Shown one piece after another: positions 1 through 32,449 of a stretch of 53,150 nucleotides of DNA. The DNA comes from a virus (lineage: Duplodnaviria; Heunggongvirae; Uroviricota; Caudoviricetes), in the IMG/VR virus record IMGVR_UViG_2537562195_000010; one strand, 5' to 3'. Numbering within the stretch: the first letter of the stretch is position 1; the number at the start of each line of letters is the position of its first letter. The position numbers and the translations under genes are program-made. The notes under the pieces are model-generated. The model did not search any database. It was given only the letters and a program-made list of their open reading frames with translations, and was not told the origin of the DNA.

Positions 1-1131
1 TCAAATGACCAGTTTTTTCCACTCTTTACCGCGTACATCGTTGTAAATATCGGTCATTTTTTGATTCGAATGACCCAGCAAAATTTGGGTATCAATTCCC
101 TGCTCCCTGAACAATCGCTCTGATAAAGATCTCTGCTCATGGAAAGAGGGTGGAGTGCCATTAGCGCGCCAGTTGTAATCCACAGAATCCCGGGCTTTTT
201 TAAATGCAACTGTCAACGTTGCTGGCTTAACCATCCCGCCGCGCTTAGCTGTCCCTTTAGCATGATGGTGGTGCAATAACCACGGACTAAGAACGCAATC
301 GCGACAGGATGACACTACATCATCCAGGGTGAGATTTAATTTATCGCAACGCAGAGCCAGAGGGATGGCAATCCGGGTTCCTGTTTTTTGCTGTTCGACA
401 TGAAGATAACCATCCCTGATATCCGAAAATTTCATTTTGCAAATATCTGAAAGGCGCTGGCCTGTCATCAGCGCCAGCAGCATACCACGTTGTAAAAAGT
501 AACCATCCTTTTCCGCTGCATTATAAATCATCATCCACTCATCAAAGGTCAGTCGTTGCCGTGATATCCGTACCTGTGGTTTTTTTGCCGATTCTGCAGG
601 GTTAAAGCCTGGCGAGACATCGCCCGTTTGCTGGGCCTCCCGGAAAACATCAATCAGTACTTTCCTGAAAATTTGTCCCATTCTGTTATGTCCTTTTGCC
701 TTGTAATCTTCCAGCACCGATACCACATCTTTTACGGTTATGGCATCTAATGGTCTGGTACCAAAACGTTCATCAAATACCCTGAGAGGGGATGCTTTCT
801 GTTTCAGTGTGTTGAGTTTGATCTCTCCGTTTTCATATCTTTCCTGTTGAATTTTTCGGTAACTATTCAGAAAAACAGAAACGGTTGATGAACCACCGGT
901 ATCACGAATAATTTTCTCCTGCAGAGTGAGCATTTGTTCCATTTGTTGCCTGGCAAGACGGCTGTTCGCTTCTGCTGCAATAGCTTCTGCCTGTTTCTGG
1001 TCAATACTGCCGAGCCCGTGATTTTTTCCTGTTATGGGATGCCTGTAACGCCAGTAAACTTTGTTATTTCTTTTGTCAAAATACGGAGATAATCCCGGAA
1101 CTTCAGTTTTATATTTTCGTGGGCGCGCCAT
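1..1131 (-). CDS. int: Tyrosine-type site-specific integrase (phage integrase)
   Basis: 376 aa ORF; stop codon at window positions 1-3; C-terminal catalytic-domain motifs typical of lambda-family integrases (R...HxxR...Y region, 'LLGHSNQKMTDIY'); overlaps the excisionase start by 23 nt as in lambdoid int-xis operons. Confidence 0.9.
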   Translation of the reverse strand: MARPRKYKTEVPGLSPYFDKRNNKVYWRYRHPITGKNHGLGSIDQKQAEAIAAEANSRLARQQMEQMLTLQEKIIRDTGGSSTVSVFLNSYRKIQQERYENGEIKLNTLKQKASPLRVFDERFGTRPLDAITVKDVVSVLEDYKAKGHNRMGQIFRKVLIDVFREAQQTGDVSPGFNPAESAKKPQVRISRQRLTFDEWMMIYNAAEKDGYFLQRGMLLALMTGQRLSDICKMKFSDIRDGYLHVEQQKTGTRIAIPLALRCDKLNLTLDDVVSSCRDCVLSPWLLHHHHAKGTAKRGGMVKPATLTVAFKKARDSVDYNWRANGTPPSFHEQRSLSERLFREQGIDTQILLGHSNQKMTDIYNDVRGKEWKKLVI

Positions 1132-4362: not shown

Positions 4363-4899
4363 TATCGCGTCCTCAACAATGAATTTTGTGATGTGGTGCC
4401 TGGTGCCTCCAGGTGACGTTAACCAGTTAACAATTAACGCCGGATTGTTAGTTGATGTCTGTTACGCCAGTAAAAGACCGCTTGTTTTAACTGTTCCGCG
4501 TGCGCTTAGCCGCATTCACCGCATCACAAAATACACTTTAAAAATGGCGGATATCCATTTCCGCCGAATCACCAGAAAAGTGATAACAGAGGTTGTTGTG
4601 GCGGTGTTGTCACTCAGGCGCATGGTCAACCTGACAACCCGGTACATTTTCTGGAGCAATGGAGGAAGCCCCAGCCATACTTACCGCCGCGCCATTTCGC
4701 GGATTGCCACAACCGGAAGCGCACGATCGAATTAAATTTAACGACAAGCCTTATATTCTCGCCGTGCGCTTTCGTGTTATGCCCTGACTTTTCAGGGATA
4801 TGTTCTTTCAGCAAACTGTCAGTGCCGGATTCTTATCCGTGTCCGGCGCACGACCACACGTGACAGCGTGTTGGTCTCCATCATTAACCCGGAACCTCT

Positions 4900-5996: not shown

Positions 5997-6416
5997 CTAT
6001 GATGTGTTTCGTGCTTTCTTTTTGCTGATTTCTTCGTAGATCATATTGTAATATTGTTTTTTCTCTTCAAGAGTTTTTAATAAGTTATCCGCTTCGCTTT
6101 CTGGCAGTTCGTCCAAGAGATCTAAAAAAATACGTTGTCGTGGTGTTAGAACCCTTGTTTCATAATTGGAGGTTGTGTTCGTTGATGATGAAACGATACC
6201 ATCCATCCATCCCCGGGGTAACCCAAAGGATTCTTCGATAATCTCCACCATATCATCAGCGATCCGTTTTTTCCCTTTTTTCCCCTCTGGGTACAACATT
6301 CTTGATACATAAGAAGGCTCGCGGCCGATTTTTCTGGCCACGTTAACCGCTTTACCATCGCATTTCTCATCACGAATTTTGATGAGTTGCTGTCGTCTAA
6401 ATTCATATTTGTCCAT
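5997..6416 (-). CDS. Prophage repressor (CI-like HTH protein lacking an S24 peptidase domain)
   Basis: 139 aa; HTH-like segment 'VARKIGREPSYVSRML'; divergent from a Cro-like gene and flanked on both sides by related palindromic operators; no Ala-Gly/Ser-Lys autocleavage module recognisable. Confidence 0.7.
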   Translation of the reverse strand: MDKYEFRRQQLIKIRDEKCDGKAVNVARKIGREPSYVSRMLYPEGKKGKKRIADDMVEIIEESFGLPRGWMDGIVSSSTNTTSNYETRVLTPRQRIFLDLLDELPESEADNLLKTLEEKKQYYNMIYEEISKKKARNTS

Positions 6417-16667: not shown

Positions 16668-17726
16668 ATGTTTAATACTGTAAAAATATCCAGTTGTGAG
16701 TTAATCAACGCCGACTGCCTGGAATTTATCCGGTCGTTACCCGAAAATTCTGTTGACCTGATAGTCACGGACCCGCCGTACTTTAAAGTGAAGCCTGAGG
16801 GCTGGGATAACCAGTGGACGGGTGATGAGGATTACCTGAAATGGCTGGACCAGTGTCTGGCGCAGTTCTGGCGGGTGCTGAAACCTGCCGGAAGTCTTTA
16901 CCTGTTCCGTGGCCATCGCCTGGCGTCTGACATTGAAATCATGATGCGTGAACGCTTCAGTGTGCTGAACCATATTATCTGGGCGAAGCCGTCCGGACGC
17001 TGGAACGGGTGCAACAAGGAAAGCCTGAGGGCGTATTTCCCCGCCACAGAGCGCATTCTGTTCGCGGAACACTATCAGGGGCCGTATCGCCCGAAAGATG
17101 ATGGCTATGAGGCGAAGGGCAGGGCACTGAAACAGCATGTGATGGCTCCGCTGATTGCTTACTTTCGTGATGCGCGTGCTGCCCTGGGGATAACGGCAAA
17201 ACAGATAGTGGATGCCACAGGAAAGAAAAACATGGTGTCGCACTGGTTCAGTGCCAGTCAGTGGCAGCTACCGAACGAAAGCGATTATCTGAAATTACAG
17301 GCGCTGTTTGCCCGGGTGGCAGAAGAGAAGCATCAGCGGGGTGAACTGGAAAAGCCCCACCACCAGCTGCTGGAGACGTATACTTCACTGAACCGGCAGT
17401 ATGCGGAACTGCAGAGTGAATATAAGCATCTGCGGCGGTATTTTGGCGTGACGGCGCAGGTGCCGTACACGGATGTGTGGACGCATAAACCGGTGCAGTA
17501 CTATCCCGGGAAACATCCGTGCGAAAAACCGGCAGAAATGCTGCAGCAGATAATCAGTGCGAGCAGTCGTCCGGGTGACCTGGTTGCAGATTTCTTCATG
17601 GGGTCGGGTTCGACAGTCAAAGCCGCGATGGCGCTGGGGCGTCGTGCAACTGGCGTTGAGCTGGAGACTGAACGTTTTGAGCAGACGGTCAGGGAAGTAC
17701 AGGATTTAGTCAGTCAGAATGGATGA
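16668..17726 (+). CDS. DNA methyltransferase (beta-class N6-adenine/N4-cytosine, DPPY motif)
   Basis: 352 aa; motif IV 'DLIVTDPPY' near the N-terminus and motif I 'DFFMGSGST' near the C-terminus (beta-class order); no adjacent restriction endonuclease, so likely an orphan phage methylase. Confidence 0.85.
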   Translation: MFNTVKISSCELINADCLEFIRSLPENSVDLIVTDPPYFKVKPEGWDNQWTGDEDYLKWLDQCLAQFWRVLKPAGSLYLFRGHRLASDIEIMMRERFSVLNHIIWAKPSGRWNGCNKESLRAYFPATERILFAEHYQGPYRPKDDGYEAKGRALKQHVMAPLIAYFRDARAALGITAKQIVDATGKKNMVSHWFSASQWQLPNESDYLKLQALFARVAEEKHQRGELEKPHHQLLETYTSLNRQYAELQSEYKHLRRYFGVTAQVPYTDVWTHKPVQYYPGKHPCEKPAEMLQQIISASSRPGDLVADFFMGSGSTVKAAMALGRRATGVELETERFEQTVREVQDLVSQNG

Positions 17727-20423: not shown

Positions 20424-20671
20424 AACATATCCTGTATATTTATGTTGTTACATACAGGCGCTTTTAGTATCTGCCGCACGGCAGTTGTACTTCAGAATAA
20501 GATGCTTTTGTGACTGGTGGTGTTGTATCTGGGGTTAGCCAGGAGGCAGGTTCAGAGAGTCCGGTGGTAATTATGTGTATGCAGTGGTTGTTGCTGTACC
20601 GTGGGCAAGTTCTGGAACTGGCTTCGTCCATTGTAGATGATTGTTAGCTGGATATCAGTTACCTCATGGAA

Positions 20672-20907
20672 ATGTTAAATGACTCACAATTCGGTTGATG
20701 GGCTATTGTCTGATCGATGGAAGTCTTGTAAAAACGAGCCAGCATAGTGAATCCCCCTGTGCGGAGGGGCGTCTGACATGGTCTCCATAGCGATGGTCAC
20801 AATACGCAGATTCAGTAGTCAGGCTGAATCTACCGGGAGGCACCCGGCACTATGCTGCTTATGGTGTATACATAGCGATCGGCCCCTCTCCGGAGGGGCT
20901 TTTTTTG
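20672..20907 (+). repeat. Structured repeat unit B
   Basis: Same conserved blocks as unit A ('GTTAAATGACTCACA', 'AGTGAATCCCCCTGTGCGGAGGGGC', 'TACCGGGAGGCACCCGGCAC', terminator 'GGCCCCTCTCCGGAGGGGCTTTTTTT'). Confidence 0.7.
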
Positions 20908-20929
20908 TGCGGGAAAAGGCTGTGTTGTT

Positions 20930-21175
20930 AAGTGTTAAATTCCTCACAGTTCAGATGGTTGATGCTTGCCTGTCTGAGGGGGAGTTGTTAAAAAAGTTCT
21001 GCATGGTGAATCCCCCTGTGCGGAGGGGCGACTGGTATGATTTGCATCTTTTCTGTTGTAGGCAATGCAAACGCGGGTTCAGGGACACCAGACTGGACTC
21101 ACCGGGAGGCACCCGGCACCATGTTCATGATGATACAGATACGCAGTGTCAGCCCCTCTCCTGAGGGGCTTTTTT
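20930..21175 (+). repeat. Structured repeat unit C
   Basis: Same conserved blocks; terminator 'AGCCCCTCTCCTGAGGGGCTTTTTT' at 21151-21175; variable central segment. Confidence 0.7.
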
Positions 21176-21202
21176 ATGCAGGAAAAACGCTGTGTTGTGA
21201 AA

Positions 21203-21436
21203 TGTTAAATTCCTCACAGTTCAGATGGTTGATGCTTGCCTGTCTTACGGGGAGTTGTTAAAAAAGTTCTGCATGGTGAATCCCCCTGAGCGGAGGGGCA
21301 TATCAGCGCAGGTGTTTCTACTCTATCCTTTCTGTGCGGGTTCAGGTGCTGATACTGAACTCACCGGGAGGCACCCGGCATCATGCATATGGTTAACAGA
21401 CAAGTAGCGAAGCCCCTCTCCGGAGGGGCTTTTTTA
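21203..21436 (+). repeat. Structured repeat unit D
   Basis: Same conserved blocks; terminator at 21411-21436. Confidence 0.7.
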
Positions 21437-21462
21437 TGCAGGGAAAAGGCTGTGTTGTGAAA

Positions 21463-21690
21463 TGTTAAATTCCTCACAATTCATGAGGTTGATGATTGTC
21501 TGATTGATGAGGAGTTTGTTAAAAAAAACGGGCATGGTGAATCCCCCTGTGCGGAGGGGTGATATCGTATCATTTCCTGTGTGGCCGACTGATATCACGG
21601 ACATTTGTTCACCGGGAGGCACCCGGCACCATGCAGTATACAGAGATTAGGCATACATCCAGGCTCCTCATCGCAGGAGCCTTTTTACAT
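21463..21690 (+). repeat. Structured repeat unit E
   Basis: Same conserved 5' blocks; central segment forms its own inverted repeat ('GTGATATCG...CGACTGATATCAC'); different terminator hairpin 'GGCTCCT-CATCGC-AGGAGCC-TTTTTA'. Confidence 0.65.
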
Positions 21691-29200: not shown

Positions 29201-29331
29201 TTATTTCATCAGAAATTAATTATCACTCTGTTGTTATTCTGTACATCCCGGCTGGGTAAGTCTTGTTCCGCCGGGTATGAAGATGAAATATTGTTGGAGG
29301 ACAGTGGGTACCTGCTCCTGTAACCGAACGT

Positions 29332-29532
29332 TCATTTCTCGTTATTTGTCATGCTGGCCGGACGCAGATGCGTTGCATCTGTTGCCAGCCTTCTCCTGCA
29401 GGCTTCAATAACCCACGCTGAAAAGTTACCGGACCCTTTATGCTCAAGGGCGATGTTGATCTGTTCAATCATGTGATTGGGGAAACGGATATTGCGGGTT
29501 GTGGTTCTGCGGGTCCGGTTTTTCGATGACAT
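29332..29532 (-). CDS. Ribbon-helix-helix-like small DNA-binding protein
   Basis: 66 aa from 'MSSKNRTRRTTTRNIRFPNHMIEQINIALEHKGSGNFSAWVIEACRRRL'; beta-strand plus two helices pattern; AAGGAAA RBS on the minus strand. Confidence 0.45.
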   Translation of the reverse strand: MSSKNRTRRTTTRNIRFPNHMIEQINIALEHKGSGNFSAWVIEACRRRLATDATHLRPASMTNNEK

Positions 29533-29573
29533 ATTTATTTCCTTTACTGATTGCCATATGACGGGGATTTTAC

Positions 29574-29939
29574 ATGGCTCAGCTTCGTACACTCCAGAGC
29601 AGAATCAAAACACTGAATACCCGACGGGTGAATATTCTGAAGGGTGAACAGCGTCGTGTCAGTGGCAGTGCACGTGTTTCCCTCAAGCGTCATATCTGGC
29701 TCAGGGACGCCGGGCAGTGCTGTCTCTGTGGTCGTGTGGTTGACCTCTGTGACAGTGAACTCGATCACCGAATTGCACTTCAGTTCGGTGGTGGTAATGA
29801 GGAGACGAATCTCTGGACGCTCTGTACCGAATGCCATCGACAAAAGTCTGCTCGTGAAGCGGCGGGTGGTATGCCGGACCCGACGCTGCCGGAGGTGTCC
29901 GGAGGTAGTGACAGAGCGGACGACATCATCGGACTGTAA
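29574..29939 (+). CDS. HNH endonuclease (terminase-associated)
   Basis: 121 aa; 'CCLCGRVVDLCDSELDHRIALQFGGGNEETNLWTLCTECHRQK' HNH/zinc-finger motif; directly upstream of the terminase genes. Confidence 0.8.
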   Translation: MAQLRTLQSRIKTLNTRRVNILKGEQRRVSGSARVSLKRHIWLRDAGQCCLCGRVVDLCDSELDHRIALQFGGGNEETNLWTLCTECHRQKSAREAAGGMPDPTLPEVSGGSDRADDIIGL

Positions 29940-30030
29940 CCCGACCCGGGGGGGTATCATCCGGCGTAAAAAACGATCGCTTTGGACACCGCGCCCCCTC
30001 TCACGCAGAGAAAAAATTCCCGTTTCAGGG

Positions 30031-30155
30031 CAGTTAACATGTTAACTGGCTGTCCGGGCATTTTTGCGGTTTTTATCTTTATTATTCAGTTTGTTGCGTG
30101 GAAAAAATGTTAACAGGCTTTTTCAGCAAATGTTAACCAGGCAGCAGTTAACATT
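30031..30155. promoter_or_regulatory. Cluster of GTTAAC-centred inverted repeats (candidate terminase recognition sites or operator)
   Basis: Seen directly: 18-bp perfect palindrome 'CAGTTAACATGTTAACTG' (30031-30048), 'AATGTTAACAGG' (~30106-30117) and 'CAAATGTTAACC...GTTAACATTTG' inverted pair (30128-30156), ending 6 nt before the terS ORF. Confidence 0.4.
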
Positions 30156-30161
30156 TGCGGC

Positions 30162-30791
30162 ATGAGACGCCGGGAAAAATGGCTGAACCATACCCGGCTG
30201 AGTGCGTTCTGGACCCGGGAGGAGGCTGTGCTGACAACGCAAAAACGAAAATTTGCGCTGGCGCTCATGTCCGGGAAAAACAAAACAGCGTCAGCCATTG
30301 CCGCCGGTTATTCGGCGAAGACAGCCAGGGTTAAAGGCTCGCAGCTGGCAAAAGATCCGGAGGTGCTTGCGTTTATAGCCCGTAAACAGTGCGAGACGGT
30401 GGAGGTGGATGAGGTTCCTGTTTACCGGCAGAAAAAATCAGAGCAGGAGGATAAACCCCGTCGCCGTGAGGCGGCTGCAATACCACAGCCGGACGAAACA
30501 AATCCGGAGATGCCACCGCCCGTGGTGATATCTCCTGGTATTGAGTATATGGAGGACGGTCTTCCCGATCCGGTGAAAGCGATGGGGCGTCTTCTGGTGG
30601 AGAACATTAATACCGACCCCAGGCTGGCGCTGGATGCGGCTTATAAGCTGGCGCAGTTCACGCACCACAAAAAAGGGGATGCCGGTAAAAAATCGGCAAA
30701 AGGTGACGCGGCGAAAAAAGCGGCTAACCGTTTTGCGGTGCCACCACCACCCCGACTGGTGGTGAATAATGATAATGAGGGCAACGGATGA
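30162..30791 (+). CDS. Terminase small subunit
   Basis: 209 aa; N-terminal HTH-like 'LTTQKRKFALALMSGKNKTASAIAAGYSAKTARVKGSQLAKDPEV'; directly upstream of and overlapping terL; alternative GTG start at 30228 with GGGAGGAGG RBS. Confidence 0.75.
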   Translation: MRRREKWLNHTRLSAFWTREEAVLTTQKRKFALALMSGKNKTASAIAAGYSAKTARVKGSQLAKDPEVLAFIARKQCETVEVDEVPVYRQKKSEQEDKPRRREAAAIPQPDETNPEMPPPVVISPGIEYMEDGLPDPVKAMGRLLVENINTDPRLALDAAYKLAQFTHHKKGDAGKKSAKGDAAKKAANRFAVPPPPRLVVNNDNEGNG

Positions 30792-32449
30792 TACCAGTGT
30801 GGAGCACGGCCTGCCCGGACTGGGCAGAGCGCCTGAAAAAGGGGCTGTCGATTATTCCGGCCCCGATTTATTCGGATCAGGCTGCACATGCACTGGCGAT
30901 TTTTAAACAACTGCGGATTGTGGATGCACCGGGCAGCCCGACGTTCGGGGAGTCCTGCGCACAGTGGGTGTTTGACCTGGTGGCGGCCCTGTTTGGCTCC
31001 TACGATGCGCAGACCGGTGTACGCCATATCAAGGAAGTTTTTATCCTTATCCCCAAGAAAAACAGCAAGTCCACGCTGGCTGCCGGGATCATGATGACGG
31101 CGCTGTTACTGAACTGGCGGCAGGCGGCGGGCTACACCATTCTGGCCCCGACCGTGGAGGTGGCGGCTAACGCCTTTAATCCTGCGCGGGATATGGTACG
31201 ACGGGACGATGATCTGGATGACCTCTGCCAGGTGCAGACACATATCCGGACCATCACCCACAGGGTGACGGACACCACCCTTAAGGTGGTGGCTGCCGAT
31301 CCGAATACGGTATCCGGTATCAAGTCCGTGGGGACGCTGATTGATGAACTGTGGTTATTTGGCAAGCAGTACAAAGCGGAGGACATGTTACGTGAAGCCA
31401 TAGGCGGCCTTGCCTCCCGCCCGGAAGGGTTTGTGGTGTATACGACCACCCAGTCGAATGAGCCGCCAGCCGGGGTGTTCAGACAGAAACTGCAGTACGC
31501 CCGGGATGTCCGTGACGGCAAAATTCATGATCCGCACTTTCTGCCGGTGATATTTGAGCATCCGCCGGAGATGGTGGAGCGCGGTGAGCACCTGCTGATG
31601 GAAAACCTCGCCATGGTCAATCCGAATCTCGGTTATTCGGTGGATGAGGCTTTTCTGTACCGGGAGTACCGTAAAGCCCGGGAGGCTGGTGAGGAAGCAT
31701 TTCGTGGCTTCATGTCAAAACATGCCAATGTGGAAATTGGTCTTGCCCTGCGTTCTGACCGCTGGACGGGTGCGGATTTCTGGGAGCAGCAGGGCAGGCG
31801 CGTCAGCCTGGACGATATCCTGCAGCGCGCTGATGTGGTGACGGTGGGGATTGACGGCGGGGGCCTGGATGATCTGCTGGGAATGTACGTGATTGGCCGT
31901 GACAGGGAAACCCGCGAATGGCTGGGCTGGGGCCATGCCTGGGCGCATGAAACCGCGGTGGTCAGACGGAAGAGTGAGGCATCCCGGTTTCAGGATTTTG
32001 TGGCCTGTGGAGATATGACGATTGTCCGTCGGGTCGGGGATGACACGGCGGAAGTGGCGGAGTATGTGCGTCGTATTCATGAGGCTGAGTTACTGGAGCA
32101 TATCGGTATTGACCCGTCAGGTGTGGGGCAGATTCTGGATTCACTGGCGGAAGCCGGGATCCCCGACGGAATTGTTGTGGGGATAAGCCAGGGCTGGAAG
32201 CTGGGCGGGGCCATAAAAACCACCGAGCGCAAACTGGCTGAGGGAGTGCTGGTGCATGGTGGTCAGCCACTGATGGCCTGGTGCGTTGGCAATGCCCGGG
32301 TGGAGCCGAAAGGTAACGCCATCCTTATTACCAAACAGGCCAGCGGACGGGGGAAAATTGACCCGCTGATGGCGCTCTTCAATGCGGTATCCCTGATGTC
32401 CCTGAATCCGGAGCCGAAAAAGAAAGAATATGCGGTTTTTTTCATATAA
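30788..32449 (+). CDS. Terminase large subunit
   Basis: 553 aa; ATPase region and C-terminal nuclease-like region (e.g. 'VTVGIDGGGLDDLLGMYVIGRD') typical of HK97-type large terminases. Confidence 0.9.
   Translation: MIPVWSTACPDWAERLKKGLSIIPAPIYSDQAAHALAIFKQLRIVDAPGSPTFGESCAQWVFDLVAALFGSYDAQTGVRHIKEVFILIPKKNSKSTLAAGIMMTALLLNWRQAAGYTILAPTVEVAANAFNPARDMVRRDDDLDDLCQVQTHIRTITHRVTDTTLKVVAADPNTVSGIKSVGTLIDELWLFGKQYKAEDMLREAIGGLASRPEGFVVYTTTQSNEPPAGVFRQKLQYARDVRDGKIHDPHFLPVIFEHPPEMVERGEHLLMENLAMVNPNLGYSVDEAFLYREYRKAREAGEEAFRGFMSKHANVEIGLALRSDRWTGADFWEQQGRRVSLDDILQRADVVTVGIDGGGLDDLLGMYVIGRDRETREWLGWGHAWAHETAVVRRKSEASRFQDFVACGDMTIVRRVGDDTAEVAEYVRRIHEAELLEHIGIDPSGVGQILDSLAEAGIPDGIVVGISQGWKLGGAIKTTERKLAEGVLVHGGQPLMAWCVGNARVEPKGNAILITKQASGRGKIDPLMALFNAVSLMSLNPEPKKKEYAVFFI

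Follow-up and report, generated by a model that had tools for sequence, protein, structure and literature searches.

The small terminase proteins (TerS) with solved structures form ring oligomers, roughly 8- to 11-mers. Among members of the Terminase_2 family, the G1P proteins of phages SPP1 and SF6 bind reiterated boxes; SPP1, with its pacL and pacR boxes, packages its DNA by the headful mode and has imprecise chromosome ends. The TerS of HK97, the best-studied HNH-cos phage, is gp1; it uses a single 15-bp site at +15..+29 that includes an A-tract, and the DNA is threaded through the central tunnel of the protein (PMC11331095). The Stx1 phage Lys8385Vzw was induced by Zhang et al. and its virion DNA was sequenced and analyzed with PhageTerm, which gave cos packaging with 3' cohesive ends of the sequence CGCCCCCCCT (PMC7946995). 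This 10-nt cohesive end is the only published datum that we found for the phage group studied here. Our literature search gave no description of a recognition array as reported below in this phage group or TerS family, and nothing relevant on GTTAAC in connection with terminase or cos, or on Pam5.

We analyzed a window of 53,150 bp, which represents a lambdoid prophage of the BP-4795/2851/1717 Stx-phage type (93-98% identity over the cos-terS region). Over the same region E. coli 2012C-4502 is 100% identical to the window. The region occurs in 1287 of the 5426 complete E. coli genomes, a single genome having as many as 8 copies. The local order is lysis genes, a TonB-like gene, a YlcI/YnfO gene on the minus strand (DUF3950, 29332-29532), HNH, the repeats, terS, terL, a protease-capsid fusion and portal; the prophage also contains a Q gene and a DNA methyltransferase gene (16668-17726). 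As in HNH-dependent 3'-cos modules, the HNH endonuclease gene is located immediately 5' of terS-terL. According to PGAP and the family alignment, terS starts at GTG 30228 (first codons GTG CTG ACA), preceded by the SD sequence GGAGGAGG at 30219-30226, and not at ATG 30162. Thus, the non-coding interval spans 29940-30227. The original prediction had placed a cluster of GTTAAC palindromes between the HNH endonuclease and terS, and this is where the array lies (HNH ending at 29939, terS starting at 30228). From sequence comparison we propose that the five AAATGTTAAC-type elements (30031-30158) probably form a cosB-like array by which an HNH-dependent cos packaging system with 3' overhangs recognizes its DNA. 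The features of the locus are as follows.

29574-29939, plus strand: HNH endonuclease gene (HK97 gp74-type packaging accessory nuclease; PF01844, E = 6e-7; PGAP 'HNH endonuclease').
29948-29954, plus strand: run of seven G (G7), about 35-45 nt left of the cut.
29984-30022, plus strand: near-invariant cos core GGACACCGCGCCCCCTCTCACGCAGAGAAAAAATTCCCG, holding the cut site and an A6 tract (30011-30016).
29990-29999, plus strand: inferred 10-nt 3' cohesive end CGCGCCCCCT, by homology to Lys8385Vzw; virion left end +1 = 30000.
30031-30048, no strand: sites 1 and 2, perfect 18-bp palindrome CAGTTAACATGTTAACTG made of two divergent ATGTTAAC sharing AT.
30049-30101, plus strand: T-tract-rich spacer with T runs at 30061, 30070, 30078 and 30090.
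30102-30114, plus strand: site 3, AAAAAATGTTAAC, with the ATGTTAAC octamer itself at 30107-30114.
30126-30137, plus strand: site 4, GCAAATGTTAAC, left arm of a convergent inverted pair.
30147-30158, minus strand: site 5, GTTAACATTTGC, right arm of the inverted pair.
30228-30791, plus strand: terS (Terminase_2, N-terminal HTH; PF03592, E = 1.6e-8; phrog_641, E = 1e-68; PGAP start).
30788-32449, plus strand: terL, with ATPase and nuclease domains (PF03354, PF20441).

The octamer ATGTTAAC is present five times in the window, with 1.55 copies expected, and all five copies fall inside 122 bp (30033-30154); outside the cluster the 53,150 bp contain none. By a rough Poisson estimate, the probability of such a cluster at any place in the window is about 2e-12. 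The hexamer GTTAAC occurs 14 times in the whole window versus about 9 expected, which, the cluster aside, is not unusual. The 18-bp perfect palindrome, the fully complementary inverted pair (12-nt arms, 100% complementarity, 9-nt gap) and the third copy of the octamer that had been described for this locus were all recovered, at 30031-30048, 30126-30137/30147-30158 and 30107-30114, respectively. An 18-bp palindrome arose in 20 of 100 shuffles, and the window has a second one at 1625-1642. The palindrome is unremarkable alone; it is the cluster together with its conservation that makes the feature real.

Sites 1 and 2 are divergent and sites 4 and 5 convergent, and with inter-site spacings of 8, 68, 23 and 15 bp in mixed orientation there is no simple helical phasing. 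Such orientations would suit an oligomer whose HTH domains act independently on flexible tethers more than they would a fixed dimer. Sites 1 and 5 share an 11-mer (GCAGTTAACAT), and sites 2 and 3 share the 16-mer AAxATGTTAACxGGCT (88%); these shared flanks indicate that the array grew by local duplication. The T-tracts of the spacer at 30049-30101 may bend the DNA. An IHF site comparable to I1 of lambda cosB was considered and rejected, since the best matches to the IHF consensus WATCAANNNNTTR carry 2 mismatches and there is no good site at the array. An RNA element or terminator was also rejected (no Rfam match at E <= 1, fold z-score of -1.4, no plus-strand terminator). Elsewhere in the window, GACGTTAACCAGTTAACAATTAACG at 4415-4440 in the early region contains three TTAAC with 8-bp spacing, three AAATGTTAAA are located at 20670, 21200 and 21460 (within 20670-21469), and the GTTAAC copies at 6342 and 6751 lie inside ORFs taken as repressor and cro-like genes.

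The position of the cut is known from a close relative. The GenBank record of Lys8385Vzw (MT225100) ends with ...GGACACCGCCCCCCCT and starts with CTCACGCAGAG... (CTCACGCAGAGAAAAAATTCCCGTTTCAGGGCAGTTAACATGTTAACTGG...). Its identity to the window amounts to 97.9% right of the cut and to 95% on the left, and all five sites are present. As the cut was mapped by PhageTerm in this 95-98% identical phage, the cut in the window is placed at 29990-29999 and the repeats at +32 to +155. Counted from virion +1 by homology, the sites occupy +32..49, +108..115, +131..138 and +148..155, and terS starts at +229. Thus, with the cut as mapped in the relative, all repeats fall into the first 160 bp of the packaged chromosome, to the terS side of the cut, where HK97 TerS also binds. 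Mapping of the genome ends had been suggested as a check on the packaging-signal reading, and the mapped ends of Lys8385Vzw agree with it: they match window 29999/30000, directly beside the repeats. Defined 3' cohesive ends between the HNH gene and terS are therefore established through the 95-98% identical relative, not through this prophage itself. A total of 94 phage records was surveyed, almost all of them in prophage order, and MT225100 is the sole record arranged by its termini; the prophage ordering of nearly all 94 ruled out end-mapping directly from public phage records.

Over 49 unique sequences the cos core shows almost no variation, and satellites, described below, differ from it at one position. 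The invariant block bearing the A6 tract extends over +1..+23, with the tract itself at +12..+17. All lineages examined, satellites and HK97 included, keep a run of 7-8 G to the left of the cut, while the sequence between G-run and core diverges; the G-run is possibly a cosQ-like or nuclease-positioning element. The cohesive end is polymorphic. It reads CGCGCCCCCT in the window, CGCCCCCCCT in Lys8385Vzw and Salmonella phage SP-016 and CGCGCCCACT in three satellites (L139-L141), with L138 and L001 among the equivalents compared. Mixed cohesive ends could affect cyclisation after cross-packaging.

The likely reader of the array is encoded directly downstream. TerS of the window (WP_000958387) belongs to Terminase_2, with a PF03592 match above the curated cut-off, and its N-terminal HTH matches the SF6/SPP1 G1P-like profile of this family. 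The TerS-family profile also matches the small terminases of Pam5 and PaP3 (7joq) and the DNA-binding domain of SF6 (4zc3, 2cmp) in the PDB, weakly (E = 0.006-0.06) and over the N-terminal roughly 55 residues. TerS of the window and TerS of SP-016 are 49% identical, with most of the matching positions in the N-terminal ~60 residues. TerS would thus be the protein that binds the GTTAAC repeats. Between HK97 gp1 and TerS of the window no sequence similarity was detected. Because the two proteins are without sequence similarity, a transfer of the HK97 TerS mechanism by homology was rejected. At the HK97 left end (L134 1-50), the TerS site at +15..+29 (CTAACCCGATTTTTT) and its left flank TTTAAC (+8..+13) contain TAAC words, and GTTGAC stands just before the terS ATG. 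With TerS proteins unrelated in sequence, this echo of the GTTAAC theme may be a coincidence.

Conservation searches were seeded on the cut-site core GGACACCGCSCCCCCTCTCA and not on GTTAAC, and yielded 9 genome loci and 120 viral loci. These loci show two architectures. In the five-site type, the E. coli Stx-like lineage, GTTAAC is found at +49, +57, +125, +148 and +163 from the core start. The one- or two-site type comprises SP-016 and relatives from Citrobacter, Enterobacter, Atlantibacter and Buttiauxella, and has a palindrome GT(A/T/C)AAC-RT-GTTAAC at +49..+62 from the core start that spans the terS start codon (...GGAGGGTGTAAACATGTTAACAGCG = M-L-T-A). The palindrome of the window at 30031-30048 is homologous to this palindrome over the terS start codon. 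Among 49 unique five-site sequences the blocks AGTTAACATGTTAACTG, AAAAAATGTTAAC, AAATGTTAAC and GTTAACATT are invariant and the spacers variable. In phages and satellites, sites 4 and 5 are always 15 bp apart and sites 1 and 2 always 8 bp, and the long spacer between sites 2 and 3 is constant in length to 1-3 bp but divergent in sequence. Site 3, AAAAAATGTTAAC, is unchanged in every sequence examined except satellite L139 (GTTACC).

The two architectures also differ left of the cut. GT[ACT]AAC is present at a fixed place (-34..-29) in 49 of 52 unique one- or two-site sequences (e.g. L001 2519-2524) versus none of 51 five-site sequences; the window reads GTAAAA at ~29966-29971. Thus, the five-site lineage seems to have swapped the left-hand site for three extra right-hand ones, and the comparison suggests that recognition sites were originally located on both sides of the cut. 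The ATG within the palindrome opens a hydrophobic ORF of 24 codons, MLTGCPGIFAVFIFIIQFVAWKKC (30039-30113). Frameshifts or truncations disrupt this ORF in several phage variants, and in satellites it ends after 4 codons; therefore it is not a conserved gene, the small-protein reading was rejected, and coding constraint cannot explain the conservation of the sites.

The searches also gave observations on other prophages and on genome records. In PPompW-type prophages (L143 1146-2604), ISEc20 of the IS110 family abuts the cos region at about window position 29951. These prophages, with the order Q, tRNAs, IS, cos, terS and without lysis genes and HNH, are probably defective. Many complete E. coli chromosome records (e.g. 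NZ_CP107178.1, NZ_CP124392.1, NZ_OX030701.1) end about 890 bp past the query start. As the match ends about 890 bp into the query, those records start exactly at the terL start codon of the prophage, which looks like an assembly-rotation artefact of a tool orienting sequences on terL.

About 50 of the 5426 complete E. coli genomes, strain 042 among them, contain a diverged copy of the region without terminase genes, with 81% identity to window 29983-30156. In strain CH427 (L004 7962-17400) the copy forms the right end of an island of roughly 9.4 kb located between cspD/yljB and clpS, and the same element is present in strain 042. The island encodes an integrase, an HTH regulator, YlcI/YnfO, an Icd-like protein, a RepA helicase and a protease-capsid fusion; terS, terL, HNH, portal and tail genes are all absent. 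In further islands the copy adjoins phoQ (with type I restriction-modification cargo) or yejO. These satellites (L004, L139 9001-9254, L141, L142) are PICI-like and differ in chromosomal site and cargo. All of them retain the G-run, the core and the five sites, with site 3 mutated to GTTACC in L139. When the window is compared with each satellite, none of the 38 octamer positions differs, against 33-36 of the 101 other positions in 30020-30158, which for satellites without a site difference corresponds to Fisher p-values of 1e-6 to 5e-6 for site against non-site differences. The single apparent site difference in L065 and in L142 is an alignment artefact; the GTTACC change of L139 is real. The homology of phage and satellite stops immediately past site 5, so that the array is located at the extreme end of the satellites and no gene lies 3' of it. 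The satellite capsid gene was considered as a link to this type of helper and rejected, as it shows no similarity to the capsid-protease gene of the window. An intact non-coding element, retained at the end of islands that rely on the terminase of a helper, fits the expected appearance of a packaging signal. Judging from these sequences, PICI-like islands have probably copied the phage packaging signal so as to be packaged. In the PICI papers searched we found no description of islands carrying a 3'-overhang, HNH-type cos with the full GTTAAC array.

The motif extends beyond the core-seeded loci. An alignment of TerS retrieved 80 further viral loci, and 24 lineages with less than 80% identity at the TerS N-terminus were compared. 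Over these lineages the same order recurs: G-run, GACCGC...CCC core, A/T tract, GTTAA(C/A/G) motifs and a terS start encoding M(A)LT. GTTAA/TTAAC occurs 57 times in 3,119 bp (the 130 bp up to the LT codons) versus 119 times in 71,775 bp elsewhere, an 11-fold enrichment (binomial p = 1e-34). TTA encodes the Leu of LT in 17 of 24 lineages, genomes of 58-62% GC included, versus 25 of 251 other Leu codons of the same genes (p = 9e-11); in part this could stem from a general bias towards A/T-rich codons close to the start. In the enterobacterial one- or two-site group, codons 2-3 invariably read TTA ACA, with synonymous variation in the adjacent codons. Where the start is without TTAAC, as in L190, L210 and the window (GTG CTG ACA), extra upstream copies are present. 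In L049, 4 of 4 AAAGTTAAA of 14 kb fall within 243 bp right of the core, and distant lineages carry GTTAAA or GTTAAG variants. We tentatively hypothesize, with somewhat less than even confidence, that GTTAA(C) might be a recognition word common to a very broad phage family with an HNH-dependent 3' cos and a Terminase_2 TerS, in hosts of about 36% to 64% GC. In most lineages this word would be written into the terS start, with Met-(Ala)-Leu-Thr encoded as ATG-(GCN)-TTA-ACN, so that the first codons of terS would also act as its DNA-binding site. In the E. coli Stx lineage the two roles would have been uncoupled by duplication of the word into the five-copy non-coding array, and the left site lost.

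As in a cosB, a short motif is reiterated beside the cut on the terS side, which by analogy with lambda would be the end packaged first, and the five octamers are under strong purifying selection in non-coding contexts. We infer that TerS binds this array, that the sites are needed in packaging and that the DNA is bent or wrapped. Binding by TerS is indirectly supported by its HTH and by the joint occurrence of motif and TerS family over the lineages; a need for the sites in cis has strong indirect support from terminase-less satellites, which retain the full array and lose homology past site 5. In the proposed mechanism, the HTH domains of an oligomeric Terminase_2 TerS, similar to G1P of SF6/SPP1, would bind the AAATGTTAAC elements right of the cut, and the T-tract spacer may aid a bend or wrap of the DNA around the TerS ring. 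Bound TerS would position TerL and HNH at CGCGCCCCCT (29990-29999) and mark the DNA for packaging. TerL and HNH would then cut the concatemeric phage DNA with a 10-nt 3' stagger. The repeat side of the cut would become the new left chromosome end, where the complex would remain and start translocation. Satellites bearing the same G-run, cut site and five repeats would be packaged by the terminase of the helper.

It is rather unlikely, in our view, that the repeats are a packaging element bound by a factor other than TerS, such as TerL, HNH or a DNA-bending host nucleoid protein, with TerS reading the A-tract block by the cut as HK97 gp1 does. Such an arrangement would have precedents in the A-tract within the HK97 TerS site (PMC11331095), to which the invariant A6 block at +1..+23 of the window can be compared, and in lambda cosB, which also needs the host factor IHF between its R sites (PMC6092414). 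However, HK97 gp1 is unrelated in sequence to TerS of the window, whose SF6/PaP3-type N-terminal HTH suits short reiterated sites, and the IHF consensus is matched only with 2 mismatches. Moreover, the recurrence of GTTAA motifs over hosts of 36-64% GC favours a phage-encoded reader travelling with the motif. Adenine methylation is the explanation that we consider least probable of all. Clustered Dam sites gate cleavage at P1 pac, and the repeats could be sensing sites of that kind if an adenine methyltransferase of phage or host acted on GTTAAC. This hexamer is known as a target of methyltransferases and of restriction (HpaI), and the prophage carries a DNA methyltransferase gene at 16668-17726; but the distant GTTAAA and GTTAAG variants would not share one methylase target, and the frequency of GTTAAC outside the cluster is unremarkable.

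That the repeats are non-functional scars, left when the 5' end of an ancestral terS (ATG-TTA-AC...) was duplicated or recombined as a new terS start arose about 190 bp downstream, is very unlikely. The homology of the palindrome to the terS start of relatives and the flanks shared by sites 1/5 (11-mer) and sites 2/3 (16-mer) fit an origin by duplication, but such an origin leaves the retention unexplained: between phage and satellite no site position has changed while about 34% of the positions between the sites differ, satellites without terS retain the sites, and the ORF of the palindrome ATG is broken in several variants. Still less probable are operators for a transcription factor of packaging or late genes, for example the YlcI/YnfO (DUF3950) protein encoded next to them. 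This reading could draw on the location of palindromic sites ahead of an operon, on DUF3950 genes both at 29332-29532 and in satellite L004, and on a weak minus-strand promoter-like match made by the motifs themselves. Against the operator stand the expression of lambdoid late genes by read-through from pR' under Q, for which the prophage has a gene, the absence of a plus-strand promoter-like site or terminator in 29300-30500 and the SP-016-type phages, which have the palindrome with no YlcI/DUF3950 annotation in roughly 2.5 kb upstream. The satellites are hard to reconcile with it because no gene follows the array at their extreme end. The original prediction had left open whether the repeats are a cosB/pac-like array or an operator. 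The former is favoured by repeats at +32 to +155 from the mapped cut, invariant sites, retention in satellites and the recurrence of GTTAA in distant relatives, while the latter loses ground with no plus-strand promoter or terminator and no gene past the array in satellites. A cosB-like array is a classical kind of element; for this phage group and TerS family we found no earlier description of one. The GTTAA word in the terS start across the family and the acquisition of the complete array by PICI-like islands might be new to specialists.

Such prophages, present in roughly one in four complete E. coli genomes, include many Stx1- and Stx2-converting phages, and the packaging signal decides which DNA, toxin genes and satellites included, leaves the cell in virions. 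The proposed anatomy gives the group a concrete cos of about 210 bp in total, consisting of G-run, cut site and five AAATGTTAAC sites. It could serve as a minimal cos cassette for transduction vectors and as a sequence handle to find satellites exploiting such phages. A shared recognition word, if true, would let one satellite cos be read by many helpers.

Cos-type satellites such as SaPIbov5 with its HNH-cos phages, P4 and EcCICFT073 are likewise terminase-less and bear a copy of the helper's cos; SaPIbov5 encodes a capsid-protein homologue, and so does one island here. The E. coli PICIs described so far rely on lambda-type cosN and Rpp (PMC6739421, PMC9026076), whereas the islands reported here carry a 3'-overhang, HNH-type cos with the complete GTTAAC array. 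Lambda cosB (R3-I1-R2-R1), which is bound by gpNu1, resembles the array of the window: in it, too, a short motif is repeated in mixed orientation over a span of about 125-150 bp that lies immediately right of the cut and before terS. Lambda cosB is placed alike between cosN and Nu1, and is also copied by satellites for packaging (PMC6092414). In contrast, lambda has 12-nt 5' overhangs, no HNH protein and an Nu1 of another TerS family, while the window has 3' ends and HNH. Lambda cosB needs an IHF site, for which the window has no good match, and the motif here is AAATGTTAAC, which in most relatives overlaps the terS start codon, unlike in lambda. HK97 shares with the window the order HNH-terS-terL, 10-nt 3' overhangs and terS within tens of bp of the left end; both also have an A/T tract directly right of the cut and, about 45 nt to its left, a G-run. 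However, HK97 has a TerS without similarity and a single 15-bp site, whereas the window combines a reiterated 8-10-bp motif with an HTH-bearing Terminase_2 TerS; the array would thus be a natural counterpart to HK97, whose TerS reads one site. The pac of SPP1/SF6, with pacL/pacR boxes bound by G1P, is read by a TerS of the same Pfam family, Terminase_2 with N-terminal HTH. Its reiterated boxes flank the cleavage site, and the one- and two-site relatives described here have GTNAAC on both sides of the cut. The boxes themselves are unrelated, and SPP1 is a headful (pac) phage with imprecise ends, whereas the system of the window is of the cos type, with defined 3' cohesive ends and an HNH helper.
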